Part shown: positions 4,165-58,066 of the stretch, piece after piece | Layout of the letters: every line of letters starts with the position of its first letter | Numbering within the stretch: position 1 is the stretch's first letter | Source: Candidatus Levyibacteriota bacterium | Lineage (GTDB): Bacteria > Patescibacteriota > Microgenomatia > Levybacterales > UBA12049 | DNA: 64,000 nt | Direction: 5' to 3' | Assembly (NCBI GenBank): GCA_963716145.1 | Contig: OY970292.1 | Coordinates: forward strand, 405,171-469,170 | The notes under the pieces: generated by a model | The model's database searches: none | What the model saw: the letters and a program-made list of their open reading frames with translations, nothing else | Told to the model about the DNA's origin: nothing | Made by a program: the position numbers and the translations under genes

Positions 4165-4170
4165 AGTTTC

Positions 4171-4271: not shown

Positions 4272-4577
4272 GTGTCTTATTACATTATCCTGTCTTGTTA
4301 TTCTCTGCTCAAAGTCTTTCGGAATTCCGCCTTTTCCACTTCCGCCTGCTTCAGGATCTGATTCAATTCCCAACATATAATAATGTCCTGATTCTTCGTG
4401 TTGAATTGCGTAAGCTAGAGGTTTTTGTCCCCAATCATCTTCTTTGGTTATTTTAACACCCCCGCCTTGACTCGGCGAGGCAGGTTTCAGCCAGTCTTTA
4501 ATTGTTGTAAATAATTTCTTACGGTCTGCTTCTTTCAAGGATGGCCTCAAAACCAATACCAATTCGTAAAGTCTCAT
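4251..4577 (-). CDS. rpsF: 30S ribosomal protein S6.
   Basis: MRLYELVLVLRPSL... is S6-like, in the conserved rpsF-ssb-rpsR order. Confidence 0.85.
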   Translation of the reverse strand: MRLYELVLVLRPSLKEADRKKLFTTIKDWLKPASPSQGGGVKITKEDDWGQKPLAYAIQHEESGHYYMLGIESDPEAGGSGKGGIPKDFEQRITRQDNVIRHLLLRTK

Positions 4578-6390: not shown

Positions 6391-6435
6391 AAAGAATATT
6401 TTAACACAAACTTCAGTCAAAACATGTACATAAAT

Positions 6436-20663: not shown

Positions 20664-21584
20664 CTAAATACTCACTCCCTGCGCTTTCGCGCATTGAGGA
20701 CCTTTTAGATATTTTTCCTTACATTCCTTTTTACAAAAAGCCAAACCTGTTTCCTTATCCAAGCAATCATCACATCTTATGTGGTGATAGTGACAAAAAT
20801 TATATTCGCAATTTACGTAAGTGTCACTTGCCTTATTACATTCCATGCACCTGCCAACCACCTCGTGCTCTGGGTCATCAGTATTAAATCCTATTGTTAA
20901 TCTTTTATCAAAAACGTAAAGCTTTCCCAAAAAATGTTCATTTGGGTATTTTTCCATGTATGTCTGAATGCCTCCTTGCAGTTGATAAACATCGTTGAAT
21001 CCATTCATCAGCAGAAAACCGGAGGCTTTCTCACATCTTATTCCTCCTGTGCAAACTGTTACAATAGTTTTGTTTTTGAGATGCTCCAATTTTGGCAAAA
21101 CATCAGGAAGGTCATAAAAATTGTGTATTCCGGACGGAATAAAATCCTTGAAATAACCCGACTGGTATTCATAGTCATTTCGCATATCAACGATGTAAAA
21201 TTCTTTTTTATCATCAAACCACTGATGAAGTTTTTCCGGAGTTATATATTTCCCGCTTACTTTGGTTGGGTCCACAGGTATTCTGACAGTCACTACTTCA
21301 GGACGTACCCGAACTATTAATTTACCAAATGCCTCCCCTGTCCCATCGCTTTTTTTGAATTTGATTCCCACGAACAATTTGTTTCGCGACATTACGGAGA
21401 TATATTTTTTGGTGTCTTTTTCCAACCCTTCAATAGTTCCATTAATACCCTCCGGAGCAACAATAATCCGACCCAAAAGATTAAGAGATTCGCAAAGCGT
21501 TCTTTGCTCACGCAGGACCAACTCTGCATTCTCAATCGAGACGTATTTATAAAAAAGCAAAACCTGGTAGTTAGAGGAATTCAT
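20664..21584 (-). CDS. trhO: Rhodanese-domain tRNA uridine(34) hydroxylase, TrhO/YceA (UPF0176).
   Basis: YKYVSIEN...VAPEGINGT N-terminus, a rhodanese CxGGxRC region (CTGGIRCEKA) and a C-terminal Cys cluster. Confidence 0.8.
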   Translation of the reverse strand: MNSSNYQVLLFYKYVSIENAELVLREQRTLCESLNLLGRIIVAPEGINGTIEGLEKDTKKYISVMSRNKLFVGIKFKKSDGTGEAFGKLIVRVRPEVVTVRIPVDPTKVSGKYITPEKLHQWFDDKKEFYIVDMRNDYEYQSGYFKDFIPSGIHNFYDLPDVLPKLEHLKNKTIVTVCTGGIRCEKASGFLLMNGFNDVYQLQGGIQTYMEKYPNEHFLGKLYVFDKRLTIGFNTDDPEHEVVGRCMECNKASDTYVNCEYNFCHYHHIRCDDCLDKETGLAFCKKECKEKYLKGPQCAKAQGVSI

Positions 21585-21662
21585 ACCTCAATTATAGCAG
21601 AATGCCCACCCTAAAACTTTGTATTTAGTTTTTACGGTGGGCAATGCTCGTCCAACTTACAG

Positions 21663-21809
21663 CTAAGCGTTTCTTTTGATGAAACGCATTAAAAAAACGA
21701 TTATTGCAATGACTAGCAGGACATGAATTATTCCTCCGCCAATATGGAGTCCAAATCCCAATAACCAGAGAACCAATAAAATAATTGCAATTGTTTCTAT
21801 TAAACCCAT
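21663..21809 (-). CDS. lmo0937-family small membrane protein (48 aa). It is not in the ORF track.
   Basis: MGLIETIAIILLVLWLLGFGLHIGGGIIHVLLVIAIIVFLMRFIKRNA. Confidence 0.6.
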   Translation of the reverse strand: MGLIETIAIILLVLWLLGFGLHIGGGIIHVLLVIAIIVFLMRFIKRNA

Positions 21810-21843
21810 TTTTTTCCTCCTTTCTTGAGGAATTCAACTAAAA

Positions 21844-22236
21844 CTAATTAACCATACCACTTGCTCTTCTTGGCTGAGATCCACTAGCCATTTTCGAAGA
21901 GCTTTTTCTGGGACTACTAGACGCGCGCTTTTTTAAAGAGACACTTTTTTTAGTACCGTTTTTACTAGAAGATAGGCCGTTAGTCTTTGCTCTTAATATT
22001 TGAGCTTTTTCACGCATTTTCTGCTCTTCTTTCAAAACTTTGTCCAAGCCTTGTGATGCGCGCTTGGTAAGATCCTCGCCTTTCGATCTAATGCTTTTAA
22101 GCACCTTTCCCGCTTTTTTCCTATTTTTTTTGTTGGAAAGCGCTACTGCAGCAACGCCGGCCGCAACCGCTGCCGTACTTACAATTCCCATCGCTAAGGG
22201 TGTAATCTTTCCATTTTTTTTACTTTTTTCTGCCAT
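21844..22236 (-). CDS. Hypothetical Lys/Ser-rich protein with an N-terminal transmembrane helix.
   Basis: ORF with a low-complexity basic tail. Confidence 0.4.
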   Translation of the reverse strand: MAEKSKKNGKITPLAMGIVSTAAVAAGVAAVALSNKKNRKKAGKVLKSIRSKGEDLTKRASQGLDKVLKEEQKMREKAQILRAKTNGLSSSKNGTKKSVSLKKRASSSPRKSSSKMASGSQPRRASGMVN

Positions 22237-22342
22237 ATAAATTCACCTCCCCTCGGACTTTAATGTGAACCTACTATAAGTTTACTGAGTAATGAGGAAG
22301 TAAAAATGGTGTAAGAATAGAGAAAGAAGCAAGATAGGTTAT

Positions 22343-22744
22343 TTACTTGAGTTGAGTTTGCACAACCTCCAATAACTCCCGCACATCAAATGGTTTTGGC
22401 AGGAAAGCGTTTGCCTCCGACTTCTTAGCCTCCATCATTGCACCGGGTTGGGCTGAAATCATTATAATAGGAATGTTTTTTGTTGCCTTATGGCTCTTTA
22501 ATTTTTTACAAATTATTTTCCCATGCGTACCGGACAGCAATACATCAAGAATTACCAAATCAGGCAGGCTTCTTCTCATACTAATAAAATCCTCAATAAG
22601 ATCCACTTGTTGCGAAATTTCGACTTCATATCCTTCGTTTTCAAGCGTAAATTGGATAGCGTCAAGTATATCCTGATCATCATCAACAACAAGAATTTTT
22701 TTTCCTTTAACCAAACTCTTTTTTTTGTTTAAAAAATTATTCAT
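22343..22744 (-). CDS. Stand-alone response-regulator receiver domain.
   Basis: KILVVDDDQDILD ... LVILDVLL ... KPF. It overlaps the 3' end of the upstream kinase gene by 4 nt. Confidence 0.8.
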   Translation of the reverse strand: MNNFLNKKKSLVKGKKILVVDDDQDILDAIQFTLENEGYEVEISQQVDLIEDFISMRRSLPDLVILDVLLSGTHGKIICKKLKSHKATKNIPIIMISAQPGAMMEAKKSEANAFLPKPFDVRELLEVVQTQLK

Positions 22745-24606
22745 TTCTGCAATGGAATTGTAAAACTAAACTCCGTACCTTTTCCTTTAACGCTCACAAC
22801 CTTTATTTCTCCACCATGACGCTTGATAATTTCATTAGCAATATAGAGCCCCATACCCAACCCGGGGTAGGTTTTTTCTTTTGATCCGGACACGCGGTAA
22901 AACTTTGAAAATATTTTTTTTTGATGTTCAGGGGCTATACCTATACCAAAATCGCGGACGGCAATTTCTGCCGCTTTCTTTTTTTTAGTAAGTGTTATTT
23001 TCACTTTTTTTCCGCCTGGTGAATATTTAACCGCGTTTGTTAACAGATTTGTAATGACCTGGGACAACCGGTCTCTATCTCCAAAAACTTCTTGCCCAAT
23101 CTTTCCTGATAATTCAAACTGATGATTTTTACTCGAATGCTTCAGCATACTGATTATTTCGTTGATCATGTCTTCAATATGGAATTTTTCCATTGTAAAT
23201 TCCATTTTCCCGTGCTCCACCTTTGAAACATTCAGCAAATCTCCAATAAGCACAGCCAACTTTCTGACCTGATTATCTATCTTTTCAAAATATTTAAGAC
23301 TACCTAGTTCCCCGCTTTTTCTATACTTTTCTCTTAGTACCTGAATGTAAAGGTTCAAACTAGTAACCGGAGTTTTGAGTTCATGCGAAGCAACTGAAAT
23401 AAACTCGTCCCTAACCTCAATTGCCTTTTTTGCCTCCGTATAAAGTTGGGCATTTTGTATTGCAAGCGCTACGCGGTTTCCCAACTCCTCAGCAATTGAT
23501 AGATCAGTTGAAGTAAAGTGCCTAGAATTTGTCATGATGAAAGTAATTGCACCAATCGCCGATCCCCCGACAAGAAGCGGAACTTCTATAATCGAGGAGA
23601 GATCAAGACTCCTAATTAACTTAAGAATTTTTTTATTTTCTATGCCTGCAACCAACATTTCATCAGTCACCGCAGGGATGAATTCGGATTTTCCTGATTT
23701 TATTACCCTGGCCACACCGGTATTGGAAGCGAGATCAATCGGATGAGTTTTACGGAATTCACGGGCCAACTTAACCATCTTTGGATCCTTGTGAGCAACA
23801 GCAAGCATTTCAACTTGACCTTCAAAATTTAATGCATCAACAATATACCAATCCGCAATGTGGGGAATAGCTAATTTTGCCACATTGTTTACCGTTGTTT
23901 TGTAGTCAAGCGATGAAGAAAGTAATTTGCTTGCCTCAGAAAGGAATAAAAGTTTTTTTTGGGTTTCTAGCAACTTTTTTTCGCTTTTGCGTCTTTCAGT
24001 TATCTCGAGCTGCGACTGCTTATATAGCCGTGAATTATCAAGCGCTAAAGCAATTCTGTGTCCGATCTCCTGAGCAAATTCCAGATCATTCTTCGTATAA
24101 TACCGGTCACTCCTAACCGAAGAGAGGGTAATTGCTCCAATCACTTTTCCCCGCGCTATAAGAGGAACTCCCATGTATGACTTTAAGCCGATTTTTTTTA
24201 CGCTTTCATAAAGCGGCTTATTGTTCTGAATTGCGTTAAGAATCTTTTCATCTATCACCTCAATTATCTCTGCCTTCCCGCTTCTTAATATTTTTTCAAT
24301 ACCATGAGTCGCCTCTGGCCTTCCTTTATAATTTTCAAATAATTCAGAAGCAAGCTGAACTTTGGAAGGATCTTTGTGATTTACGTTAATTTCTTTAAGC
24401 TGTTTATTTTCATCAACAATAGCAACTCTTGAATAATCGGCAAAGGCCGGTACAAGAAGTTGGGTAATTTCCTGAAGTGTTATATCGTGATCAATCGATG
24501 TGGCAAGCTTATCTATGATGCGCGCAAGAAGTACCTCCCGTCTTGCGAGCGAGGCATTCAGTTTTTTATTTGTTAGATGAGACGAAGACGTACTATCCCT
24601 GTCCAT
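22741..24606 (-). CDS. Sensor histidine kinase with two GAF domains, HisKA and HATPase_c.
   Basis: Tandem GAF-like regions, H-box SVASHELKTPVTS and the N, G1, G2 boxes (NLLTNAVKYS, DFGIGI, GLGMGLY). Confidence 0.85.
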   Translation of the reverse strand: MDRDSTSSSHLTNKKLNASLARREVLLARIIDKLATSIDHDITLQEITQLLVPAFADYSRVAIVDENKQLKEINVNHKDPSKVQLASELFENYKGRPEATHGIEKILRSGKAEIIEVIDEKILNAIQNNKPLYESVKKIGLKSYMGVPLIARGKVIGAITLSSVRSDRYYTKNDLEFAQEIGHRIALALDNSRLYKQSQLEITERRKSEKKLLETQKKLLFLSEASKLLSSSLDYKTTVNNVAKLAIPHIADWYIVDALNFEGQVEMLAVAHKDPKMVKLAREFRKTHPIDLASNTGVARVIKSGKSEFIPAVTDEMLVAGIENKKILKLIRSLDLSSIIEVPLLVGGSAIGAITFIMTNSRHFTSTDLSIAEELGNRVALAIQNAQLYTEAKKAIEVRDEFISVASHELKTPVTSLNLYIQVLREKYRKSGELGSLKYFEKIDNQVRKLAVLIGDLLNVSKVEHGKMEFTMEKFHIEDMINEIISMLKHSSKNHQFELSGKIGQEVFGDRDRLSQVITNLLTNAVKYSPGGKKVKITLTKKKKAAEIAVRDFGIGIAPEHQKKIFSKFYRVSGSKEKTYPGLGMGLYIANEIIKRHGGEIKVVSVKGKGTEFSFTIPLQK

Positions 24607-24641
24607 TTACTGGATAATATAGCATATTTAAAAAGAAGTTT

Positions 24642-24803
24642 CTATTGTGATTTTTGGCCACCTCCATATATTTTGTTAACAGTAGCCCATGCCCTCTCTT
24701 CTGCCTCCTCCTCGGACACCCCCTTCTTCTTGTATCCTTTCTCTATATGCTTTGCTTGCCTCTTTTGCTTACTAGTGTACTTGGATTTATCACCCCTGGG
24801 CAT
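24642..24803 (-). CDS. Small conserved basic protein (MPRGDKSKYTSKQKRQAKHIEKGY...).
   Basis: ORF. It resembles a widespread small stress-associated protein family, which I did not name. Confidence 0.4.
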   Translation of the reverse strand: MPRGDKSKYTSKQKRQAKHIEKGYKKKGVSEEEAEERAWATVNKIYGGGQKSQ

Positions 24804-24890
24804 ATAATCACCCCCTTTTTTTGACAAAATAATTGTAAACAAAAAGAGTTAAAAAGTGTTATAAAAAATGTAAGAGGATAGAAAGAGCAA

Positions 24891-25553
24891 CTATTCTTTT
24901 ATTATGTAACCAAATCCGCGAACTGAGGAAATAAGCTTTTTGCTGCTGCCACCGTCGATTTTTTTCCGTAAATATCCAACATACACATCAACTACCCGAC
25001 TGTCTACATCCATTGAATATTTCCAAACTCTGTTAAGGATCATTTCACGAGTCAGTACGCGACCTTTGTTCACCAGCAGATAATGAAGCAATTTAAATTC
25101 GTGAGGCGTTAGCTGTATTTCATTTCCATTTCTGGTAACTCTTACTGCCTGAGGATCAATAACCAGATCATCCACTTCAATTTTTGCGCTTGTTTCAGTT
25201 CTTAATCTTACCCCAATACGCGCCATAAGCTCATCCAGCTCAAACGGTTTACCGATATAATCATCTGCCCCCAATTTAAACCCATCGACAATATCTGCTG
25301 TCTGATTTTTGGCGGTGAGAATGATAACAGGAAGAGTTGGAAATTGCTTTTTTATTTCGCGGCAAACCGACTCACCTGTTATTTTGGGAAGACCCAAATC
25401 CAGAATAACCAAATCGGGGAGATTTTTTCGGACAGAATCAAGAGCCGCTGCGCCATCTTCAACCGCGTCGACAAGAAAACCATTTTCAGTCAGAAAATTT
25501 TGAATTCCTTCACGGATTGTCTGATCGTCCTCAGCGATTAATATCCTGTTCAT
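24891..25553 (-). CDS. OmpR-family response regulator (receiver plus winged-helix).
   Basis: RILIAEDD...LVILDLGLP...KPF, then LTPHEFKLLHYL...GYLRKKI. Confidence 0.85.
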   Translation of the reverse strand: MNRILIAEDDQTIREGIQNFLTENGFLVDAVEDGAAALDSVRKNLPDLVILDLGLPKITGESVCREIKKQFPTLPVIILTAKNQTADIVDGFKLGADDYIGKPFELDELMARIGVRLRTETSAKIEVDDLVIDPQAVRVTRNGNEIQLTPHEFKLLHYLLVNKGRVLTREMILNRVWKYSMDVDSRVVDVYVGYLRKKIDGGSSKKLISSVRGFGYIIKE

Positions 25554-25610
25554 TTGCTAGCTTAGTATAGCATGCAAGTTTCAATTTGCAAGACGCTTTA
25601 TGTGAAGGTT

Positions 25611-25976
25611 TTAATTAATATTTCGGTCTATTGCTTTTAGTAATATTTCCCGCTGAAACGGTTTTGGTATAAATTCATTTACAGCCAACTTTTGGGCCAT
25701 CTGTTCGGCCTGAGAGCTAGCAGACATCAAAAGTATAGGCAGATTTGCGCCGGCCGCGTTTCGCATATTTGTAATAATGTCCTCAGCATTTTCTCCAGGC
25801 AAAAAATAATCGAGTAAAACAAGATCAGGTTTTTCCTGCTTTGCTTTACCAACTCCTGCGCGTCCCGTATTAAATGAAGCGACATTATACCCTTCCATCT
25901 CGAGCAACATTGAGAGAATTTCACCTATTGAAGCATCATCATCCACTACAAATATTTTTTTTGCCTGATTATCCAT
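25611..25976 (-). CDS. Stand-alone response-regulator receiver domain.
   Basis: KIFVVDDD...LVLLDYFLP...KPF. Confidence 0.8.
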   Translation of the reverse strand: MDNQAKKIFVVDDDASIGEILSMLLEMEGYNVASFNTGRAGVGKAKQEKPDLVLLDYFLPGENAEDIITNMRNAAGANLPILLMSASSQAEQMAQKLAVNEFIPKPFQREILLKAIDRNIN

Positions 25977-26113
25977 ATCCTATATCCATTCTAGTCTTAG
26001 CATCACTCTTGTATATTAAAATTATGTAAGAAAAGCGCAAGAATTGCCTTATAATCAATTATTTTGACAAAAATATTGTCGATTTCAACTATAATATCGA
26101 TAAATCATAATTT

Positions 26114-27275
26114 ATGAAATCATTTAAACTTCAACGGGGGCAGGTTTTGAAAAACAAAAAAACAATTTTCCATAAAATTTTAGATCACATTTTGGCGGTT
26201 CTTTTTTCTCTAATTGGAATATTGATAGTTACTTTAGCTGGTTCTCCACTGAATACTGTACCTTTATTAATTTTTATTCCTCTTATTGTTATTAGTGCAT
26301 GGAACGGAGGATTATCTGCAGGCATATTAACCACTGTAACTTCAGCACTACTTATTGTTTTATATCCTTTTCAATCAAGCAGCATATATGATTATATTGA
26401 TATTGCACATGTCTTCGTGTTTGTTTTATTTGTAATCGAAGGTACTTTTTTCAGTTTTATAATTAATTTGTTGCAGCAGCGGGCCCAGGATCGGAGAGTA
26501 CAAAAAACGCGAGAGGGAGTTAAATAAAAGGATTTTTGAGCTTGAAGAACAAAATAAGAAAAATGAAAAAGAGATAAGGTCCCGTGACGAATTCCTATCA
26601 ATTGCCTCACACGAGCTGAAAACCCCTCTTACGTCGATGCTTCTTCAAACCCAAACAGCACTTCACAATATAAGAAATGTTTCTGTTGCGCATTTTTCTT
26701 TTGAAAATCTTTTGAAGATGCTGGAGAGCGTTGAAAATCAAACAAAAAGACTGTCCAAGATGATAAATGACCTTTTGGCTGTTTCAGTAATTACAATCGG
26801 AAACTTAAATCTCGAATACGAAGAAATTGATCTGGGCAAATTGGTAAAAGGAGTTTTAACTGATTTTCAGGCTAGGATAAATAAAGAAAAGATCGAGGTA
26901 ATATTTAATTCCGAAGAAAAAGTCATTGGCAAGTGGGACAAAATTAGAATTGAGCAGGCTATTTCAAATTTTGTCTCCAACGCAATTAAATACGGCGCAA
27001 ACAAGCCTGTTGAAATTGCTGTCAGGAAAAATAACCGCTATGCGGAATTTGTCATAAAAGACAATGGAATCGGGATTTCCAAATCAAAGCAAAAACTGAT
27101 TTTTGAACTTTTCCAAAGAGCTGTTTCAACTGAAGAATATAAGGGACTTGGTGTCGGACTCTATATAACTCAAAAAATAATTATTGCCCATGGTGGGATA
27201 GTAGAAGTTTCAAGCAGCCCCAACAGAGGCTCAAAATTCACAATGAAGCTCCCCTTCAAAAGACCCCAGAAATAG
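26114..27275 (+). CDS. DUF4118-domain sensor histidine kinase with a probable frameshift in the A6 run at 26503-26508.
   Basis: Track ORF 26114..26527 is a DUF4118-like membrane domain. ORF 26637..27275 is HisKA/HATPase_c. The H-box FLSIASHELKTPLTSM lies between them in the +1 frame. One fewer A rejoins the frames. Confidence 0.75.
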
Positions 27276-28715
27276 TCATACGCTGGGTAAATTTTCTACC
27301 GAGGTTTTCAGTTTATATTGCCAGTTGCGATCCCCCACTTCTTTTTCGGTTCCGGGGATATTTATTCGATCAGTAGTCAAAAGCCAATCCTGAATTGAAA
27401 TAATTACGGTTTCTGCTGGCGAGTCGATTATTCCATCGCGAAGATTTTTCGCGAATACTTTCTCAACCGAATTGTACTTCACACCGCATGCACGAGCAAG
27501 TGATTTTCTTTGCTTTGGTGATAAGTTCCGCAGATACACAAGTAGTGTCTCCGTATCATGTGTTGTCGTGTACGCAACGGTCAAGGCAGGATAGTTGCTG
27601 ATCTTTGCGTATTCTTTATTTATCTTTTCCTTTTTTTCATTCAGAGCAAATCGAAGAATTTTAATTCCCGGAGTTTTGAGCTTATTAAGAGAATTCCTCA
27701 GCTCGCTGAGATGCTCCCCGCTATCTTCGGCAAATATTGAGAGTCCCGCTCTCTTTCCATAAAGCATCAACTCCTCAAATACAACATGCCCCGGACCTTT
27801 TATGTACTTATCGTTATTTTCATTTGTTAAATCTATCTCTCCGTAATCAAACAGTCCTTTCGCGTGATCAAAACGAATTGAATCAAAAAGAAGCGACAAA
27901 TAATGCAATCTGCATTTCCAAAAATCAACAACTCTTTTGCTTTGAGTCTTATCCCCCCATTTATAAAGCGGATGTCCCCAAACTTGTCTTCCAAAATGAG
28001 CGGACGGACTATCCGGAATTCCTGAGACATAACGTGTCCTGCCGTCTTTCTCAAACTGAAAAACGCCTTGATTAGCCCAAACAAGCGGGCTCTGCATAGA
28101 GACATAAAACGGTAAATCGCCTATCAGTTTGATTTTTAGTTTTTTCGCTTTGTTTTTTAATTCCTTGTACTCTTTATGCAGATGGTACTGAACTAAGATA
28201 TGTTGGTCAATTTCCTTTTTTAATAAGTTGGAATAACTATCTATTGCGATTTTTTTTCTTTTTCTTAAATCAGGAATCCATTCTCTCCAATCATCAGTTC
28301 CCAAGTGATCGCGAAGCGCGCAAAAAAGCGCGTAATCTCCTATCCACTCCTTGTTTTCATTGACAAACACTTCAATCTCTTTTTTGCTCTTGCGCTCTTG
28401 CGCTCTTGCGCCCACTGATAAATACCTTGGGTCCAGTCCAATTCCATATCCTTTATACGGAGATGGAACATGCCGAGTTGCTGAGCCTTTTTCGAGTTGA
28501 GTCTGATGGAGTGGAAGTAATTGCCAGGCCGATTGATTAGTTTTATGCAGCCAGTCGAGGAAATATAAGCCTGTTTCAAAAATTCCCTGATCTTCTTTCT
28601 TGGATTTTAAACTTGAAAGCGCGGAAACCGGCACAAGCGTACCAATAATTTTCTTTTTTTGAGTCACATAGATAATTATATCATCTATGCAATTAGCGAC
28701 TTTGGGGAGGAACAA
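27276..28715 (-). CDS. malQ: 4-alpha-glucanotransferase (amylomaltase, GH77).
   Basis: WQLLPL, LIGDLPFYVS and RIDHAKGLF motifs. It contains the 26-nt (GCTCTTGC)x3 tract at 28389-28414. Confidence 0.8.
   Translation of the reverse strand: MFLPKVANCIDDIIIYVTQKKKIIGTLVPVSALSSLKSKKEDQGIFETGLYFLDWLHKTNQSAWQLLPLHQTQLEKGSATRHVPSPYKGYGIGLDPRYLSVGARAQERKSKKEIEVFVNENKEWIGDYALFCALRDHLGTDDWREWIPDLRKRKKIAIDSYSNLLKKEIDQHILVQYHLHKEYKELKNKAKKLKIKLIGDLPFYVSMQSPLVWANQGVFQFEKDGRTRYVSGIPDSPSAHFGRQVWGHPLYKWGDKTQSKRVVDFWKCRLHYLSLLFDSIRFDHAKGLFDYGEIDLTNENNDKYIKGPGHVVFEELMLYGKRAGLSIFAEDSGEHLSELRNSLNKLKTPGIKILRFALNEKKEKINKEYAKISNYPALTVAYTTTHDTETLLVYLRNLSPKQRKSLARACGVKYNSVEKVFAKNLRDGIIDSPAETVIISIQDWLLTTDRINIPGTEKEVGDRNWQYKLKTSVENLPSV
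28389..28414. repeat. 26-nt tandem micro-repeat GCTCTTGCGCTCTTGCGCTCTTGCGC inside malQ.
   Basis: Identical to 56899-56924 inside dnaX. Both encode ARAQERKS in the same frame. Confidence 0.75.
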
Positions 28716-29052
28716 TTGCAGATGGTGATCTAGCAGGAACGGAAGAAGTTACATCGGGTGATTGAACTGGCTTAGGATCACCTAGACCACCTGAAGCGTA
28801 CAAAAGCGCTACTGTAACTGCGCTACCTACGCCAACCAGAGCGCGATTTCTTCTCCGGAGAGATCTATCTCTAGCTCTGTCTGCCACAGCTTCATCTCTT
28901 CTTCGTTGCCTCGCCGCTGCTTTATTTCTAGCCTTAGCTTTCTGTATGGCGTCGTGCCTTGCAAGTGGCATATCTAGACTTGGATCCTCTAAACCGAAGT
29001 CTGGGTTTGTTATCCCACCGCTTGTAATTTTATTTAAAAGTTCAGTTCCCAT
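28693..29052 (-). CDS. Hypothetical Arg-rich protein.
   Basis: ORF only. It overlaps the malQ start. Confidence 0.3.
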   Translation of the reverse strand: MGTELLNKITSGGITNPDFGLEDPSLDMPLARHDAIQKAKARNKAAARQRRRDEAVADRARDRSLRRRNRALVGVGSAVTVALLYASGGLGDPKPVQSPDVTSSVPARSPSAIVPPQSR

Positions 29053-29124
29053 AAAAATATTCTCACTAAACGTGACTTATAGTATTTTAGCGCAAAAAAC
29101 TTGATTTGTCAAGGCCTGGACTTA

Positions 29125-29376
29125 TTAATAGCTACCTAAAATCAAAAGTAGCATAATAAATACCGCTGTTACAAGAGATAAACCGATACAGGCCTTTATA
29201 ATTCTTCTTATAAATTGTGGCGAATTAAGGCCAATGTGCCTGGTGGATACATGCAGGGAATGATATAAATAAAGCCAGTTGTAAGATACAAGCATAACTG
29301 CCACTAAAAGATATGCAGCAAGAAGCGCTGTTTTTAATCCGCTTAAATTCGATAAAAATGCGCTCATAACATTCAT
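29125..29376 (-). CDS. Hypothetical small membrane protein.
   Basis: ORF with two or three hydrophobic helices. Confidence 0.4.
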   Translation of the reverse strand: MNVMSAFLSNLSGLKTALLAAYLLVAVMLVSYNWLYLYHSLHVSTRHIGLNSPQFIRRIIKACIGLSLVTAVFIMLLLILGSY

Positions 29377-29975
29377 ACTGCTGGTTTTACCACTAATCCT
29401 GCTCTTCCTTTAAGCCATATCGTTTCTTCTGCTTTTTTCCTGCCCGAATCCATCAATTTCTGAGTCAACAATCTATCAATCTCATCACAGTTCTTCACAT
29501 CTCTTAGCACGAATTCCTCCTGATGTGTTGGCCGGTCAAAGGTGATTGTTAAACTTCCCATATCAATAAGTTCATGGAAAAATCCTTTTGAGCTTAAATC
29601 AATCTCCGTACAGTTCACTTTATCCAAAAACACATCGTTGATTATGTGGTTGGAAAGGGGTGTGTACCACACCTCAAGAATTTTTCTACTAGTGAGTACG
29701 TATAGATGGAAGTACCAATATACTATCGCATAAGCAACAGCACTCATTGAAACACTCAAAATCAGTAAAAATGTGACTAAGAAAAGTGGAAATGAATGAA
29801 CGTAATAATTAAAGAAGAAAAATGCCGAAACTGAAAAAATCGAAGCTATAATTGTGATCAGAAATATTGGGGATAATAAAATAAAGATATGGCGGCGTTT
29901 TACCAAAAATAACTCTTCGTCTTCAAGATTTATGAAGCTTCCCCAATCCCCTTTTATTACCATTCCGTCATTCAC
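29373..29975 (-). CDS. Hypothetical membrane protein, possibly with a bacterial PH-like domain.
   Basis: ORF with transmembrane helices. Its start overlaps the downstream ORF by 4 nt. Confidence 0.4.
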   Translation of the reverse strand: MNDGMVIKGDWGSFINLEDEELFLVKRRHIFILLSPIFLITIIASIFSVSAFFFFNYYVHSFPLFLVTFLLILSVSMSAVAYAIVYWYFHLYVLTSRKILEVWYTPLSNHIINDVFLDKVNCTEIDLSSKGFFHELIDMGSLTITFDRPTHQEEFVLRDVKNCDEIDRLLTQKLMDSGRKKAEETIWLKGRAGLVVKPAV

Positions 29976-30195
29976 GTTCCTGCCTCCTCTCAGCTTTAGA
30001 TAAATTCGGTGAGCTAATTAGGGATTGATTAGTTCACCCATATTGTACACCTACTATATATAGTGTCAAGAGGATCAAATATAACTAAATGTATAGAAAC
30101 AGTTCAGTTTTTAGATTTTTTTCTAAACCGAGAATTCCTATAGTAACTACCGCCAGAATCTGTTAAAATCAGGCCCTGCTCAAGAAAATTATATA

Positions 30196-30957
30196 ATGAG
30201 ACCAAACATTAGAGAAAACGGATCGCATTTCCATATTCCGGAAATGCCCGAGAAAGAACATCTCCCTCAATTGGTTAGATTATTCAACGCCTCAGGTCAA
30301 CATAGGGTTGTTGAATTAAGACGCGAGCTAAATAAAGCTTTGGATGAAAGAAACCTAAGAAAGAAGGATTGTGATTATGTTATTCAAATGACCGCCCTAG
30401 CCTATTGGTTACATAGAAAAAAAATCAGGATTACTACAGGCGATCCCTACATTGTTCACCCGCTGGAAGTTGCTATACACATGGCAAAAGATGAATTCAT
30501 ACCCAAAAATCTTCTCCCCCGAGCAATTGCGGGGGCTGTATTGCATGACACTGAGGAAAATAATACTCATGTAACGCACGAAAAACTTGCAGCAGTTGCA
30601 GGTAAGGCAGTTGCCAACGATGTAGAAGTATACAGCCGCAAAAGCGCCAATGATATAGCTGTGAGATGGGATACTAGCTTAAGCGAAGAGGAATATCTGA
30701 AACGAATTTTACAAGCGCTTCCCCATGTTAAGCGCGGCAAGGTGAGAGACCGGATTAATAATATGAGCACCATGCCTGAAGGTGCAAAAAAGATGTATAA
30801 CAAATATTTCCGGGAAGACAGAGAGGCCTTCATTGCAATAATAAGAAGCCTGGGCATTAATGGTCAAAATCTGTATAGAGACTATAAAAAAGTTCATGAC
30901 GCAAATAAGCCAGCAGATGTTGAAGAATTACCAACGTTTGAAGAAATGGCTGCATAG
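30196..30957 (+). CDS. HD-domain protein (RelA/SpoT-type hydrolase-like).
   Basis: IVHPLEVAI ... LHDTEEN, an HD motif arrangement. Confidence 0.55.
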   Translation: MRPNIRENGSHFHIPEMPEKEHLPQLVRLFNASGQHRVVELRRELNKALDERNLRKKDCDYVIQMTALAYWLHRKKIRITTGDPYIVHPLEVAIHMAKDEFIPKNLLPRAIAGAVLHDTEENNTHVTHEKLAAVAGKAVANDVEVYSRKSANDIAVRWDTSLSEEEYLKRILQALPHVKRGKVRDRINNMSTMPEGAKKMYNKYFREDREAFIAIIRSLGINGQNLYRDYKKVHDANKPADVEELPTFEEMAA

Positions 30958-30996
30958 AAAATCCTTACTCAATCTGCTACACTGGATTTACTGCCA

Positions 30997-32274
30997 ATGG
31001 GATATATTAAAAACTACGATAAGCTTGCCACCAACGAAGACCGCAAAATTGTTCTGGAACTCATAGAATCAGCTTTTGCCGCGATTCAGCCGGAAGTTGT
31101 ATTCAACAACCACTTTTCTATTCAAGACAAGATATTGAAAATTCAGGACAAAACTTTTGATCTCACCAATTTTGAGCGGATATTTCTCATCGGATTTGGC
31201 AAAGGTTCAGCACTGATGTGTAAAATCCTTGAAGAAAAGATGGGAGACGTACTTACGGATGGCTATGTAATTGATGTTGTTGAGCAAAGTTTTAATAAAC
31301 TTAAGTCCACGCTTGGCACTCACCCCCTTCCCTCTCAGGCAAATTTTGATTTCACCCAAAACATAATTGATGAATTTAACAATTTAACAGAAAAGGATCT
31401 GGTAATCATAACAACCTGCGGCGGGGGCTCTGTATTATTTGAAAAACCCAACACATTTGATCTCAACAAAATGATTGAGGTCAATAAAACACTTCTTAAA
31501 TCAGGGGCTACAATTTCTGAGATAAATTCAATCCGCAAACATCTTTCGCGCGTGAAAGGCGGTGGATTGGCAAAAATACTTTATCCCGCCTCGGTTGTAA
31601 ATCTCATCTTTTCAGATGTTCCGGGAAATGATTTGTCTGTTATTGCATCAGCCCCACTTGTCAAAGATCAAACAACTACTGATGACGCATGGAGTATTTA
31701 TGAAAAATACAAAATGAGCCAAACCCTGCACCTAACTATTGAGGATTTTACTGAAACACCGAAAGAAGATAAATATTTTGAAAAAGTACACAATATTCTG
31801 ATGCTCAGTAATCACACGGCCTTAATTGCTATGGAGAAAAAGGCTCGGGAGCTGGGGAAAAACGTATTTGTTTTGACAGATGCCCTGCAAGGCGATGCCC
31901 GCGAAATGGGAAAAAAATTGATCGAGCAAACTCCAGCCGGGCAAATACTTTTGGCGGCGGGTGAAACAACGATCAAGATAACAGGAAGCGGCAAAGGGGG
32001 ACGTAATCAGGCACTTGTGCTCTGCTCTCTTCCATATGTTAAAGAAGGAACAACTATCGCGACTTTTGACTCAGATGGTTGGGATTTCTATGAATTGGCC
32101 GGCGCAATTGCCGATTCCGATACTCTTAAAAAGGTTGATGATTTAGGTCTTGACGTAAAATCATTTTTAAACGAAGATAATAGTTATGGATTCTTTGAAA
32201 AAAGCGGGGATGGTATCCTAACAGGAAAGCTCGAATCAAATGTTTCTGATTTATTCATAGTTTTCAAAGCCTAA
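30997..32274 (+). CDS. Glycerate 2-kinase (MOFRL family).
   Basis: LAAGETTIKITGSGKGGRNQALVL matches the MOFRL signature. DUF4147-like N-terminal domain. Confidence 0.75.
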   Translation: MGYIKNYDKLATNEDRKIVLELIESAFAAIQPEVVFNNHFSIQDKILKIQDKTFDLTNFERIFLIGFGKGSALMCKILEEKMGDVLTDGYVIDVVEQSFNKLKSTLGTHPLPSQANFDFTQNIIDEFNNLTEKDLVIITTCGGGSVLFEKPNTFDLNKMIEVNKTLLKSGATISEINSIRKHLSRVKGGGLAKILYPASVVNLIFSDVPGNDLSVIASAPLVKDQTTTDDAWSIYEKYKMSQTLHLTIEDFTETPKEDKYFEKVHNILMLSNHTALIAMEKKARELGKNVFVLTDALQGDAREMGKKLIEQTPAGQILLAAGETTIKITGSGKGGRNQALVLCSLPYVKEGTTIATFDSDGWDFYELAGAIADSDTLKKVDDLGLDVKSFLNEDNSYGFFEKSGDGILTGKLESNVSDLFIVFKA

Positions 32275-32343
32275 CTCAAAATGCAAAAGTCAAAGCTCAA
32301 AAGTGCAATTCAAAATTAAAAAGTATAACAAACTTTTGCCTTT

Positions 32344-33249
32344 ATGATTGATCAATTAACGGATTCTAAATTAAAAGAGCTAAAACTGAAAGCCAATCAG
32401 GCAAGAAAGCTCCTTATTGAAGAGCTTGAAGCTGCCTGTAAAAATTCCGGAGCAGGCCACACAGGAGGACCTCTGGGAATGACTGATATTTTTACGGCTT
32501 TATATTTTTATATTATGAAGCATGATCCCAAAAATCCTGACTGGGAAGAGCGGGATAGGCTAATACTCTCAAACGGTCACATCTGCCCTATCCGCTACGT
32601 AAGCATGAGCCAAGCAGGTTATTTTCCTGTTGAGGAATTGAAAACTTTGAGAAAAATCGGAACAAGGTTACAGGGACATCCGCATAGAACTGCGCTCCCC
32701 GGTGTTGAGAATACATCAGGACCGCTGGGCGAAGGACTATCCCAGGCTGCAGGGATTGCCTTGGCAGGCAGACTTGATAAAAAAGATTATAAAATATATT
32801 GCCTGACATCCGATGGCGAACACCAGGAAGGAAATATCTGGGAGGCTGCTCTTTTTGCTGCGAAAATGAAGCTAAATAATTTAATTCAGGTGATTGATTA
32901 CAATAACATACAGATTGATGGACCGGTTGCAGACATAATGCCGCTTGAGCCATTCCGCGCGAAATATGAGGCTTTTAATTGGCACACGATTGATGTTGAC
33001 GGAAATGACATAAAAGCATTTATTGAGGCTGTAAAGGAGGCGCAAAGCGTGAAAGACAAACCTGTGATCATCATCGCCCATACAGTTCCGGGAAAAGGTG
33101 TAAGCTATATGGAAAACAATTACAAATGGCACGGAATGCCGCCTGGCCTTAAGGATGTTGAAGGCGCCCCGCCAAAAGATCAGCAAGTCAAAGTTGCTCT
33201 GGACGAAATAGAGGCTGAGAAAACTAGAATTATGAATCAGGAATTATGA
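32344..33249 (+). CDS. Transketolase, N-terminal (TPP-binding) subunit.
   Basis: GHTGGPLGMTDIFTALYF ... LSNGH ... GPLGEGLSQAAGIA. Confidence 0.85.
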   Translation: MIDQLTDSKLKELKLKANQARKLLIEELEAACKNSGAGHTGGPLGMTDIFTALYFYIMKHDPKNPDWEERDRLILSNGHICPIRYVSMSQAGYFPVEELKTLRKIGTRLQGHPHRTALPGVENTSGPLGEGLSQAAGIALAGRLDKKDYKIYCLTSDGEHQEGNIWEAALFAAKMKLNNLIQVIDYNNIQIDGPVADIMPLEPFRAKYEAFNWHTIDVDGNDIKAFIEAVKEAQSVKDKPVIIIAHTVPGKGVSYMENNYKWHGMPPGLKDVEGAPPKDQQVKVALDEIEAEKTRIMNQEL

Positions 33250-33414
33250 ATTAAGGTATTGCGATTGAGAAGAGCGAGTAATGATTTTTTCGCAAGGACG
33301 AATGGTAATTATAATTACAAAACCAAAATAAGGTACTCACAAACGGTCAAAACAACTTGAATATTTATAGTTAGGCGGGTTCAAGAAAAAATTATTACGA
33401 GATCTAAAAAACAT

Positions 33415-34406
33415 ATGCTTAATCCAAATTTGAAACTAAATCCGAAAATATTTGATGAGGATGTTGAGAAAGATGCTACACGCATTGGATACGGCAAAGG
33501 ACTTCTCAAACTGGGTCAGGAAAACCCAAATGTTGTCGCGCTTTGCGCTGATTTAACAGAATCAACAAATGCACATCTTTTTGCCAAAGAATTTCCTGAT
33601 AGATTTTTTGAGATGGGAGTTGCGGAGCAAAATATGGCAGCAGTTGCCGCAGGACTTGGCGTCACTGGCAAAGTCGCATTCATCTCCTCATACGCCACCT
33701 TCTCCCCCGGTAAAAATTGGGAAACAATCAGAACAACTATTGTCTATAACCAATCAAATGTTAAAATCGCGGGGCACCACGCCGGAATCATGACAGGACC
33801 GGACGGTGCAACGCATCAAGCAACTGAGGATATCGCGATAACCCGCTGCTGGCCTGATATTGAGATTTTTGTTCCATGTGACGCGATTGAAGCTGAAAAA
33901 GCAACGATTGCGGCAGGCCGCACCACAATGCCTGCGTATCTACGCTTCTCAAGAGACAAAACTCCCTTCATGACGACTGCCCAAACACCCTTCGTCCCCG
34001 GCAAGATGCAGAATTTTTGGGTGAGTGAAAATCCGCAAGCTACAATTTTTGCAATGGGCTATATGGTTCACTATGCACTGGTTGCGGCCCGGGAACTGGA
34101 AGAAGAAGGAACCAAGTAACAGTTGTAAATGTTTCAACAATAAAACCACTCGACGTTGAAGGAATTCTAAATTTTACCAACCAAACAGGTGCGGTTGTTA
34201 CGGTTGAGGATCACCAGGTAATGGGCGGCATGGGCTCAGCGATTGCTGAAGCACTAGCGAAAACAAATCCCCTGCCCATGGAGTTTATCGGTCTTCAGGA
34301 CAGATTTGGTGAAACAGGAAATCCAAAAGATTTAGTTGAAAAGTTGGGAATGGGAACAAAGGACATAAAAGCTGCTGTAAAACGTGTAATTGGTAGAAAG
34401 AAATAG
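33415..34406 (+). CDS. Transketolase, C-terminal subunit, with a probable frameshift near 34116.
   Basis: Track ORF 33415..34119 ends ...ELEEEGTK*. The +2 frame continues VTVVNVSTIKPLDVEG...HQVMGGMGSAIAE (ORF 34221..34406). Changing AAGTAA to AAGGTAA restores EEGTKVTVVN. Confidence 0.8.
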
Positions 34407-46802: not shown

Positions 46803-46903
46803 AAATCAATTGTAGCAGGAAAACTAGAATTATGAATTAAGAGGTGCGAATTAAGATTTGGCTTAAAATAAATATAATACCCTTAATTCTTAACTCTTGC
46901 TTC

Positions 46904-47311
46904 TTACTTCTTTTCGAAATTCAGAGCGCAGGAGTTGATGCAGTAATGCTGATTTGTTGGAGAAGATGAATCATCAAATACATGACCCAGATGTCCTCCA
47001 CATGTCTTGCAGATGACTTCGGTGCGTTGCATACCAAGATCATTGTCTGGTCTTAGCTCAACAGCGTCACTATTGGCAACATCGGCAAAACTTGGCCAGC
47101 CCGAAAGACCCGGCTGGTCTGATTCATATTTGGACTCACTTTTGAAAAGAACCGTTCCGCATGCTGCGCATGTATAATCTCCCGTGTCATTATTGTGGAG
47201 CAATTTACCACTTCCCGGATACTCTGTCCCTTTCTCGCGAAGAACTTTATACTGCTCAGGGCTCAATTTCTTTTTCCAATATTCCTCAGGCTTGTCCTTC
47301 ATACCGCTCAT
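46904..47311 (-). CDS. msrB: Peptide-methionine (R)-S-oxide reductase MsrB.
   Basis: CAACGTVLF ... GWPSF ... RTEVICKTCGGHLGHVF ... YCINS. Confidence 0.9.
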   Translation of the reverse strand: MSGMKDKPEEYWKKKLSPEQYKVLREKGTEYPGSGKLLHNNDTGDYTCAACGTVLFKSESKYESDQPGLSGWPSFADVANSDAVELRPDNDLGMQRTEVICKTCGGHLGHVFDDSSSPTNQHYCINSCALNFEKK

Positions 47312-49567: not shown

Positions 49568-50383
49568 CTAAGTTGTTGCGATGTGATGATTGGCGGATTT
49601 TGTGGAATTTCCTCCAAATCTTCTATCTCTTTCCGCATACTCTTCAAGTGCAGCGTCTAAATCTTCGGGACCAAAATCTGGCCAAAGTTTTTGTGAAGTA
49701 ACAGGTTCTGCATAATGAGCTTCCCATAACATAAAACCACTCTGGCGGTGCTCTCCGCCTGTACGAATAATTAAATCTACGGGGCTCATATCAGGAGCAT
49801 ACATATGACCTGATACCATTTCCTCCGTTACGCTTTCATCAACTTGATCAAGAGGTATTTGTAGCCTTACAATTTCTTTTACAGCGTCAACTATTTCCGC
49901 TCTTCCACCATAGTTAAGGGCAAAATTTACAATAATTTTCCTTCCGTCTTTTGTCTGCTCCTCAACCTCCCTTATTCTTCTTGCAATATCCTCTGGGAAT
50001 TGAGCAACGCGTCCTATTGCTCTAATTCTTATTCCCTCCTCAATAAATCTTTCAACCAAATTACCATCAAAAGTTTCCCGAAACACCCGAAATAACTCAT
50101 TAACTTGTACCTCTCCTCTTTTCCAGTTCTCAGTTGAAAATGCCCATATGCTCAGCTCGCTTATTCCACGTTTTGCTGCGTGAATTACCACAGGCTCTAG
50201 ATTACCATTTAAACCTCTTCTGTGTCCTTCTATGCGAGGAATCCCATGCCCTTCTGCCCATCGTCTATTTCCATCCATAATGATAGCAACGTGGTTGGGT
50301 GCTGACCCGATCAGCTCTCTACCTTCAGGCTCCGCTTTCAATACTCCTCCATTCGATTGACCCGGTCGCTCTATAGCTGTCAT
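49568..50383 (-). CDS. uppS: Undecaprenyl-diphosphate synthase.
   Basis: HVAIIMDGNRRWA ... NYGGR. Confidence 0.9.
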   Translation of the reverse strand: MTAIERPGQSNGGVLKAEPEGRELIGSAPNHVAIIMDGNRRWAEGHGIPRIEGHRRGLNGNLEPVVIHAAKRGISELSIWAFSTENWKRGEVQVNELFRVFRETFDGNLVERFIEEGIRIRAIGRVAQFPEDIARRIREVEEQTKDGRKIIVNFALNYGGRAEIVDAVKEIVRLQIPLDQVDESVTEEMVSGHMYAPDMSPVDLIIRTGGEHRQSGFMLWEAHYAEPVTSQKLWPDFGPEDLDAALEEYAERDRRFGGNSTKSANHHIATT

Positions 50384-56476: not shown

Positions 56477-58066
56477 TTATTTACCTTTCAATTGTACCTC
56501 AACTGCCACATCTTTTCCAGTAAGCATTTTAGCTATTCTGGAAATCTCATTTAGTGTTTTAACATCACTAAGCCGTTCTTTGTGAAATTTAAATTCTGTC
56601 TCTATAATAAGAGTTTTTTTATCAAAACTGCTAAGGCGTGCTCCCCTCAGAACTCCGGCAATTGTGTGATTATAATTTTTCATTTCAGAAATTATGCTTC
56701 TCCAGAATGTCTCAAGCCATTCTTTGGAGAGAGCGCCTGTTGCTGAAGTATGCAAAAGATTGCCACTCTTATTGACTGGCAAAGCCTCTTTCGCCGCTGA
56801 ATCCTCCTTTGGAGGACCATACATTGCTTTGATTTTTTTCATATTTCCATCCTGTTTTCTAAGCGTTGAAACAGAAACTCCGGATTCTTCTTCATTATTT
56901 TCGCTCTTGCGCTCTTGCGCTCTTGCGCTTAACTGACCAATCTCTATGATCGCCAATTCAAGCGGCAGCTGCGGAAGAACTGAGTATTTGGTATCCTGGT
57001 AAACCTGATTAAAAATCTTGGCTAGAGTTTTTAATTCGTTGACATCAAATTCTACATTCAAAGATCGTTCATTTTCTGATTTTTTCTCTACCCCAACTTC
57101 TTCCAACAATCTTTTATTTAGCTCCATTAAAATTTGTACAATAAAAAATTTAATATCAATTCCTTGTGAAATTAATGTTTCAATTATCCTAAGCCCATAT
57201 TTTACGCCCTCGTTTTTATCGCCATTCTTAAGTGAAGCAAATAAGTTTGCGATGTGCAGAGGAATGCTTGTTGTCTTGTATGACTTTTCAAGAAGTGCAT
57301 GTGTAATTTTAGTGGTATTATTTAGTGATATTTCCTCCAAAATCTTTGCGGCGTCCCGAAAGCCACCATCTGCCATTTTCGCGATTGAATAAAGAGAATC
57401 GTCATCTATTTTGATCTTCTCCGCATCAACTATGCGTTTGAGTGAATGCACAATCTCCTCCTCGGTTGCCAGATTAAAATTGATATGAAAGCATCTTGAT
57501 ACAATTGTGTCAGGAACTTTTTGCGGTTCAGTGGTACAAAGAATGAACATCGCATGCTCCGGAGGCTCCTCAAGAGTCTTGAGAAGAGCATTAAACGCTT
57601 CAGTTGTGAGCATATGCACCTCGTCAATTATGTAAACCTTTTTACTTGAGCTCATAGGCGCAAGTCTGATTTTTTCTTTTAGATCCCTAATCTCATCAAT
57701 CCCCCTGTTGCTAGCAGCATCAATTTCCAGAATATCCATGTTGGAACCATTAGTTATCGAGATGCACTGTTCACATTTGTTGCAAGGCTCTATGCTTCGC
57801 AAACTTTGAACTGAGGACTCAGAACTAAGAACATTTCCTTTGAGTTCTTTGTTCTTTGTTCTTTGTTCTTTGTTAACTGTACGGCCAGTACAGTTAACGA
57901 CTTTTGCGATTATTCTGGCGGCTGAAGTTTTACCAAGTCCTTTTGGGCCTGTAAAAAGAAAAGCGTGGGCCGGTTCTTTGACCAATAGAGAAGTTAAAGT
58001 CTCACGCACTGACTTACTGTCAAGATCGTCAATTTTTTGCGGGCGATATTTACGATAATATACCAT
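56477..58066 (-). CDS. dnaX: DNA polymerase III subunit gamma/tau.
   Basis: AAA+ motifs GPKGLGKTS and DEVHML, plus a zinc module (CNKCEQC). It contains the (GCTCTTGC)x3 tract at 56899-56924. Confidence 0.9.
   Translation of the reverse strand: MVYYRKYRPQKIDDLDSKSVRETLTSLLVKEPAHAFLFTGPKGLGKTSAARIIAKVVNCTGRTVNKEQRTKNKELKGNVLSSESSVQSLRSIEPCNKCEQCISITNGSNMDILEIDAASNRGIDEIRDLKEKIRLAPMSSSKKVYIIDEVHMLTTEAFNALLKTLEEPPEHAMFILCTTEPQKVPDTIVSRCFHINFNLATEEEIVHSLKRIVDAEKIKIDDDSLYSIAKMADGGFRDAAKILEEISLNNTTKITHALLEKSYKTTSIPLHIANLFASLKNGDKNEGVKYGLRIIETLISQGIDIKFFIVQILMELNKRLLEEVGVEKKSENERSLNVEFDVNELKTLAKIFNQVYQDTKYSVLPQLPLELAIIEIGQLSARAQERKSENNEEESGVSVSTLRKQDGNMKKIKAMYGPPKEDSAAKEALPVNKSGNLLHTSATGALSKEWLETFWRSIISEMKNYNHTIAGVLRGARLSSFDKKTLIIETEFKFHKERLSDVKTLNEISRIAKMLTGKDVAVEVQLKGK
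56899..56924. repeat. 26-nt tandem micro-repeat GCTCTTGCGCTCTTGCGCTCTTGCGC inside dnaX.
   Basis: Identical to the malQ copy. It encodes ARAQERKS in a non-conserved linker. Confidence 0.75.

Follow-up and report, generated by a model that had tools for sequence, protein, structure and literature searches.

Why two unrelated genes should carry the same short tandem repeat in the same codon phase is the question raised by a 64-kb stretch of the genome of a Candidatus Levyibacteriota bacterium (contig OY970292.1 of assembly GCA_963716145.1, positions 405,171 to 469,170 of the forward strand; hereafter the window, to whose 64 kb all in-window counts and all statements that something is the only one of its kind are limited). 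The genes are malQ, for a 4-alpha-glucanotransferase of family GH77, and dnaX, for the tau-type subunit of DNA polymerase III, and the repeat is an octanucleotide present three times in each. A preliminary description of this DNA had reported identical 26-mers in the two genes. The identity was confirmed at 28386-28411 and 56903-56928, where both loci read GCTCTTGCGCTCTTGCGCTCTTGCGC on the plus strand (that is, GCTCTTGCGCTCTTGCGCTCTTGC+GC), but the coordinates first given were off by 3-4 bases (28389-28414 is CTTGCGCTCTTGCGCTCTTGCGCCCA and 56899-56924 is TTTCGCTCTTGCGCTCTTGCGCTCTT, and these strings are not identical). The two 26-mers are 28.5 kb apart, alike in orientation and codon phase, and the bases flanking them differ between the loci (T/C before, C/T after). 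The tract is probably a coding microsatellite, an octanucleotide array that was ancestral in both genes and has been kept perfect by concerted evolution. The genes and tracts are as follows:

27276..28715, minus strand: malQ-like gene, GH77 4-alpha-glucanotransferase (Pfam PF02446, E 4e-88), an open reading frame (ORF) of 479 aa.
ATG start at 28667, minus strand: database form of malQ (P0121), 463 aa.
28386..28411, minus strand: malQ tract, sense GC(GCAAGAGC)x3, perfect period 8 over 26 nt; product ARAQERKS, residues 103-110 of the 479-aa ORF or 87-94 of the 463-aa form.
56477..58066, minus strand: dnaX, DNA polymerase III tau-type subunit, 529 aa, with the domains DNA_pol3_delta2, AAA, lid and DnaX_C.
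56902..56929, minus strand: dnaX tract, sense AGC(GCAAGAGC)x3G, perfect period 8 over 28 nt; product ARAQERKS, residues 381-388; the 26-mer common with malQ is at 56903-56928.

Tandem Repeats Finder (TRF) called both tracts with a period of 8 and 100% matches (3.2 copies for the malQ tract, 28386-28411, and 3.5 for the dnaX tract, 56902-56929), and the frame-preserving tract of 8 nt x3 proposed earlier is, by this measure, a genuine array inside two minus-strand ORFs. The 16-mer formed by two units occurs 4 times in the window against 0.02 expected (0 of 100 shuffles reach 4), and the malQ and dnaX tracts are its sole perfect period-8 arrays. A genome search for further tandem tracts had been suggested as a check; over the 64 kb it returned no third copy, not even a degenerate one at up to 8 mismatches; the sole other perfect non-triplet arrays are two 7-mer arrays, both coding. 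On the minus strand both tracts read GCA AGA GCG CAA GAG CGC AAG AGC in equal codon phase, and the ARAQERKS previously read from both unrelated proteins agrees with this translation. No repeat is visible within the peptide, which uses two different codons for Ala and two for Arg, so the periodicity belongs to the DNA and not to the protein. The octamer unit is stop-free in all six frames and its three sense frames yield one cyclic hydrophilic peptide; an array of this kind is therefore easily tolerated in loops. The tract is relatively GC-rich (62%, with a window GC of ~39%). The relatedness of the flanks, also claimed for the two loci, is weak and not convincing, one side being just an A-rich run and the other sharing ACTGA at the cost of a 1-nt indel. 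A longer element with shared flanks was considered and rejected, as only TTAAGC, TCAGT and A-runs are common to both loci and these were put down to chance or to the periodicity of the array extending outward.

Window proteins have their best matches in metagenome genomes of Saccharimonadales/Patescibacteria, and the position of the tracts was examined in ortholog alignments of 16 sequences for MalQ and 16 for DnaX. The MalQ tract lies between ...GLDP(K/R)YL and ...F(V/I)xxN(K)(D/E)WI, in a stretch that is variable in length and sequence among the orthologs, and HMMER alignments to solved GH77 amylomaltase structures (PDB) split exactly at the tract. The DnaX tract starts 6 residues past the conserved LPLELAIIE helix (VLPQLPLELAIIE), between the clamp-loader body and DnaX_C, and is followed by a variable spacer and then by the DnaX_C domain (442-529). 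Both sites are gapped, indel-rich and non-conserved, and the alignments bear out the earlier placing of the tracts in non-conserved linkers by showing each site to be hypervariable; judged by these alignments, both are genuine linkers.

Reproducibility of the tracts was assessed with Logan contigs, an independent k=31 k-mer assembly of run ERR11593400. Contig L120 is identical to window 21273-33772 and crosses the malQ tract unbroken with three units; contig L134 covers window 54049-57563 and crosses the dnaX tract, also with three units, with one 1-nt difference far from the tract. That the tracts are an assembly artefact, a concern raised in the preliminary description, or a chance coincidence has next to no probability. 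The source is a metagenome-derived genome and the window and the Logan contigs disagree by 1 nt at two places (54152 and ~58591), but both tracts lie in frame within intact conserved genes, an independent assembler reproduces both, homologous tracts are found in three other genomes, and chance would account for 0.02 of the 4 observed two-unit 16-mers. Artefact and chance are effectively refuted.

The tracts were then compared with those of four relatives, namely the closest other genome (rel1, ENA ERZ25039516 contig_13401; 71% protein identity in MalQ and 79% in DnaX), GCA_038254115 (rel2), a Logan contig from SRR32818505 (rel3) and GCA_035478335 (rel4), which pairwise identity groups roughly as ((window, rel1), rel2), (rel3, rel4). 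Tracts are present in rel1 at both orthologous positions. Its malQ reads TTAAGC(GCAAAAGC)x3GCAAA, perfect over 33 nt (x4.1 units), and differs from window malQ by one G-to-A change repeated in all three units, giving AKAQKRKS (1/3 changes synonymous); its dnaX holds a decayed, imperfect copy, CCAAGAAC GCAAGAGC CCAAGAGC. In rel2 the dnaX tract is decayed (GTAAGAGC GCAAGAGG GCATTTTG) and malQ has an unrelated long insert, and in rel3 malQ holds a remnant, possibly of the tract (GCAAAAGC GAAAAAAC). In rel4 malQ (GCA_035478335.1, L135 3261-3294) a perfect (TCAAAAA)x4.9 array encoding KSKIKNQKSK stands exactly at the octamer site, and this different non-triplet array marks the site as a spot of repeat turnover with arrays differing by lineage. 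The octamer tract was found at neither the MalQ nor the DnaX site of the more distant orthologs in the alignments. Its distribution (dnaX in the window, rel1 and rel2; malQ in the window, rel1 and possibly rel3) fits vertical descent, and no presence/absence polymorphism at odds with the phylogeny was seen among the tract-bearing relatives compared. Relatives have tracts at these sites as well, so both tracts are of old standing and came down by vertical descent; they are no recent insertions.

Concerted evolution is suggested by how the malQ array of the window differs from that of rel1. Nucleotide identity between the two is 70% in malQ (47% at third codon positions) and 78% in dnaX (58% at third positions), and the 36-nt flanks of the tracts are ~25-33% different. 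At this background divergence, ~7 scattered differences were estimated for a 24-nt array; 3 were found, all at one position of the unit. Three same-position changes in arrays that are internally perfect, on a background of ~30% divergence, point to homogenisation of the units, and a one-base change in all units of rel1 malQ is a signature of slippage or conversion. The slippage-prone character earlier assigned to the tract thus holds in part: the tract has the behaviour of repeat DNA and not of a peptide under selection, as seen from the concerted change in rel1 malQ, and slippage itself we infer.

A coding microsatellite maintained in this manner would have the following history. Arrays of (GCAAGAGC)3 would already have been present in MalQ and DnaX of the common ancestor with the nearest known relatives; the repeats would be kept perfect by slipped-strand mispairing in the array and/or by short-patch gene conversion, possibly between the loci; and reading-frame selection would purge unit numbers other than multiples of three, with ARAQERKS probably a passive hydrophilic spacer in surface-type, hypervariable linkers. 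In both genes 0, 3 and 6 units keep the frame and 1, 2, 4 and 5 units truncate the protein (MalQ after 95-111 residues, DnaX after 387-411), so linker length is equal in every tract-bearing genome. As to its kind, the tract is an ordinary coding microsatellite, and the twist is that one unit occurs in two genes. It resembles the coding simple sequence repeats and variable-number tandem repeats (VNTRs) that arise by replication slippage (the "cryptic simplicity" of linkers) in being a perfect short tandem array in an ORF, in a variable, hydrophilic and probably disordered segment, with concerted evolution and a length bound by frame. It differs from them in that the octamer unit is not a codon multiple, so that the repeat is invisible in the peptide and can change in three-unit steps only, in that one unit is found in two unrelated essential or housekeeping genes, and in that the unit number seems frozen at three across genomes with ~71-79% MalQ/DnaX protein identity.

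Several points weigh against this explanation. Slippage alone fails to explain one 8-mer in two genes, for which independent local origins were estimated at ~1e-4, and a 3-unit array in an essential gene is hard to homogenise via +/-1-unit intermediates, since DnaX is truncated in these. No length variants were found among the genomes and assemblies compared, and it is the periodic substitutions only that speak for ongoing slippage. The window dnaX array may be no more than the ancestral copy without mutations (the chance of 24 unchanged nt being estimated at ~0.005-0.06). The mini-hairpins that GCGC-AAGA-GCGC can form (-5.5 to -8 kcal/mol, z -1.5 to -2.75) have modest energies, and the array count for this organism rests on 64 kb.

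The preliminary description had suggested a contingency-type tract, which in its explicit form would be a locus where gain or loss of one unit toggles malQ and turns DnaX tau into a gamma-like truncated form. The 8-nt unit is not divisible by 3, so a unit change shifts the frame; a 2-unit allele would give a 95-aa MalQ stub and a 387-aa DnaX ending ...ARAQERK* right past the clamp-loader body; the repeats are kept perfect, as active slippage would predict; and elsewhere (GCAAGAGC)n arrays stand between promoter-like boxes and genes (e.g., Cardiobacteriaceae L055, L081, L100). Such a switch is nevertheless very improbable. Linker length is identical across tract-bearing genomes, k=31 Logan contigs (ERR11593400) cross both tracts unbroken and match the window, the arrays have only 3.2-3.5 units, and GH77 MalQ and DnaX are housekeeping proteins whose genes are not of the surface, host-interaction or restriction-modification kinds. 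Known contingency genes that switch at high rates have tracts much longer than three units, and tau (dnaX) is essential in model bacteria. The contingency loci of host-adapted bacteria (e.g., tetra- and pentanucleotide tracts in surface genes of Haemophilus and Neisseria) share with the octamer tract a non-triplet unit in coding sequence, where a one-unit change would truncate the product, but the octamer tract has 3 units, no length polymorphism was seen in it, and neither gene is a surface or restriction-modification gene. Three units being short and the genes housekeeping ones, the contingency claim found no support. The length variation between strains suggested as possible along with it was not seen either, the three-unit linker recurring at both loci in all tract-bearing genomes, none of which is a species-level relative, so that this is a weak test. 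The same fate met a mobile micro-repeat, which lacks terminal repeats, target duplication and further copies in 64 kb and whose sites are occupied in relatives: palindromes, terminal inverted repeats and target-site duplications were sought in the tract flanks and only GCGC mini-stems were seen, and the search for conserved ends and dispersed copies gave two copies in 64 kb with flanks that are not conserved. Rickettsia palindromic elements and mitochondrial GC clusters, both short and mobile, insert themselves within ORFs in frame. Like these, the octamer tract is short, GC-rich (62%), stop-free, in frame and placed in surface loops of unrelated conserved genes of an AT-rich reduced genome; unlike them, it is a direct tandem and not palindromic, falls well short of them in length (24-28 nt), shows neither terminal repeats nor target duplications, and is vertically inherited at both sites without presence/absence polymorphism. 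No evidence for the tract as a switch or a mobile element was found. Programmed tau/gamma production, with the dnaX tract as a slippage site for RNA polymerase or the ribosome that yields a gamma-like product, is hardly credible. Recoding of dnaX into tau and gamma is known from E. coli (-1 frameshift) and Thermus (transcriptional slippage), and the octamer tract likewise stands at a boundary, directly behind the final conserved helix of the clamp-loader body, and is followed at once by a -1-frame stop (CGA AAA TAA TGA directly after the tract); the 18 nt downstream (GAAAATAATGAAGAAGAA) are identical in rel1. However, neither a slippery X XXY YYZ heptamer nor any homopolymer run, A-runs included, is seen around it, nor a significant structure downstream; the immediate -1-frame stop is missing from rel2, off-frame stops are expected in AT-rich Glu/Asn codons, and the identical tract in malQ stands where recoding makes no sense.

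Copying between the loci and a unit that is intrinsically slippage-prone may each account for the unit common to both genes. Under the former, a frame-neutral cassette of 24-26 nt would have spread from locus to locus, or been renewed in this way, through ectopic gene conversion or templated repair; the malQ and dnaX tracts would be copies of one source, and their identity would reflect recent exchange. This reading is rather unlikely. The identical 26-mers 28.5 kb apart with equal orientation and codon phase would fit, as would the tract types: parsimony gives an A-type malQ (GCAAAAGC) in rel1 and rel3 and a G-type in the window, the latter an exact match to window dnaX, and the window dnaX tract is perfect where those of rel1 and rel2 are decayed. 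Other short GC-rich sequences occur in housekeeping genes of the window (a motif in cysS and a hairpin insert in ychF, listed below). Against exchange, only two copies and no degenerate ones occur in 64 kb, terminal inverted repeats and target-site duplications are absent, the likeness of the flanks amounts to a few bases, and both sites are occupied in relatives, hence without presence/absence polymorphism. The malQ and dnaX tracts of rel1 are not homogenised with each other, the "A-type" remnant of rel3 is one perfect unit that could be chance, and agreement with the other locus after one concerted change is expected from chance in an estimated ~1/24 of cases. As for a slippage-prone unit, a scan of the contigs of 185,579 species genomes with GCAANAGC x3 returned at least 117 stretches, with none from Patescibacteria among the matches listed, and at least 59 arrays of (GCAAGAGC)n, 24-65 nt long and spread over many unrelated phyla. 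Judged by flanks and not by ORFs, the listed (GCAAGAGC)n arrays look mostly non-coding, and they often stand beside other 7-/8-mer arrays. Their frequency in unrelated phyla fits a slippage-prone unit and a widespread VNTR, and the GCGC-AAGA-GCGC mini-hairpins are a further point on the side of such a unit. Viral contigs scanned with the unit and two composition-matched control units gave 1, 0 and 0 matches, too few to compare proneness to expansion, and a metagenome contig scan for strain variants with the conserved dnaX flank AGCGAAAATAATGAAGAAGAA gave 8 matches, of which 0 were dnaX. Cyanobacterial short tandemly repeated repetitive (STRR) heptamers and Chloroflexota 7-8-mer arrays are alike in having 7-8-nt units with several unit types per genome, GCAAGAGC itself being found in a Roseiflexaceae metagenome-assembled genome (MAG), and unlike in looking mostly intergenic by flanks and in being of any length (24-65 nt), whereas the octamer tracts lie in genes with three units.

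The Roseiflexaceae MAG just mentioned (JANLSE01, within L010-L119) contains dozens of (GCAAGAGC)n arrays beside other 7-/8-mer arrays (GCAGAAC, GCGTTAT, CATTGAAA), and these resemble cyanobacterial STRR repeats. In Cardiobacteriaceae MAGs (L055, L081, L100) the (GCAAGAGC)n array lies between a TATAAT-like box and a AAAATTAAAATTAAAAC leader, a context of the phase-variable-promoter type.

The candidate roles of the octamer in restriction-modification or methylation (GCGC every 8 nt) and as an uptake sequence or Chi-like signal were tried and rejected: GCGC observed/expected is 0.91 in the window, neither avoided nor enriched, and single GCAAGAGC 8-mers outside arrays number 4 vs ~2 expected. 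Rfam and tRNA scans of the window gave no match, and nothing relevant was found in the literature on the repeat, on octanucleotide phase variation or on Saccharibacteria tandem repeats.

Other short inserts and repeats were recorded in the window at the following positions:

57844..57874, minus strand: second non-triplet array in dnaX, perfect (AAAGAAC)x4.4, 31 nt, encoding NKEQRTKNKE.
5914-5948, minus strand: AAGAAYN array in ychF.
53544-53578, minus strand: AAGAAYN array in recR.
60193-60227, minus strand: AAGAAYN array in the DHH-type ORF 59449-60354.
46877-46911, minus strand: AAGAAYN array, intergenic.
51094-51111, 51221-51238 and 51321-51338, minus strand: TTCGGCA(A/G)GCTCAGG copies in the cysS ORF 50380-51864.
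3632-3649: TTCGGCA(A/G)GCTCAGG copy in ORF 3592-4179.
62937-62954: TTCGGCA(A/G)GCTCAGG copy, intergenic, upstream of proS.
5335-5390: GC-rich palindrome CCGCCTCGCCCGACTCCGGGGCGAGTCGAGGCGG in the ychF-like ORF 5251-6420 (minus strand).

The array at 57844-57874 lies in a variable insert before the DnaX zinc module and is like the octamer tract in kind, with a different unit; P0001 and P0005, the latter more distant, have peptides like NKEQRTKNKE. It is precisely within this array that Logan contig L133 (window 57845-59041) ends, as would be expected of a k=31 graph were the sample to contain alleles of greater length or the array in further copies. The AAGAAYN arrays (x4-5, sense on the minus strand) are imperfect heptamer arrays in three coding regions and one promoter-proximal spacer, and that of the DHH-type ORF is perfect over 60202-60221. 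The TTCGGCA(A/G)GCTCAGG motif (15-21 nt, sense on the minus strand) occurs 5 times in the window against 0.13 expected, with two copies identical over 21 nt and no significant folding. The three cysS copies are read in three frames (PIRQAQG, SPSAGSG and PFGKLRV) and match three inserts relative to a 463-aa CysRS baseline, of which insert c (DPFGKLRVNGEHSRTI) is present in the more distant relative P0247 and not in the closer P0246. The ychF palindrome (DNA fold -15.6 kcal/mol, z -2.4) codes for an insert of 12 residues, ANNGPASPDSGA, which the aligned solved Thermus YchF (2DBY) lacks, and a shorter related sequence, CCTGCCTCGCCGAGTCAAGGCGGGGG, lies at 4456-4489 in the neighbouring ORF 4251-4577.

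Short DNA-level events thus repeatedly modify loops of conserved proteins in this genome, which keeps copying between loci alive at low probability; the cysS, ychF and heptamer features prove nothing about the octamer tract. In a broader version, the tract would belong to a set of tiny stop-free GC-rich cassettes written into, and exchanged between, surface loops of housekeeping proteins in Saccharimonadales genomes, which is distinctly doubtful. The routes may be ectopic conversion or templated repair, with linkers built and refreshed at the DNA level; other members may be the heptamer arrays, the TTCGGCAAGCTCAGG motif with its three cysS copies, each in a different frame, and the ychF hairpin insert; and as a corollary the dnaX copy may allow a truncated, gamma-like clamp-loader subunit to arise by way of the DNA.

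If the two tracts are simply coding microsatellites, they are a clean natural case of non-triplet microsatellites inside essential genes of which only three-unit states survive, with concerted evolution visible as periodic substitutions. For annotation, such tracts are not errors, and they also bear on the origin of linkers in streamlined genomes of the Candidate Phyla Radiation (CPR). Greater weight would attach to them if the sharing of the unit reflected DNA exchange between loci or if the tract were part of a wider system of coding inserts; the latter, if true, would imply an unrecognised mutational or repair process shaping Patescibacteria proteins. What might be worth following up across the whole genome is solely the unit identity at two loci, together with the accompanying coding mini-inserts.

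Some further features of the window were noted. Upstream of malQ, at 28693-29052 (minus strand), lies a 119-aa Arg/Ala-rich ORF of odd composition whose 3' end overlaps the malQ ORF at its upstream TTG start; genes without a Pfam hit hold the equivalent position in the Logan contig and in relatives. At 54152 a single-base length difference (GGGACACAAC vs GGGACCAAC, window vs Logan contigs of ERR11593400) falls within ORF 54087-54980, the second of PRPP-synthetase-like type, which yields 297 aa in the window vs 304 aa in the Logan gene call, and at ~58591 GGAACC in the window vs GGACC in Logan is intergenic, upstream of ybeY; these 1-nt differences may be assembly errors or real variants. AT-rich intergenic repeat families of 7-mers (AATTTGA, AAATTGA, TTTAAAT) were found at 3168-4247, 53963-54083, 58881-58964, 59336-59455 and 60367-60513; they recur upstream of several genes in direct and inverted copies and may represent promoter or regulator-binding architecture.

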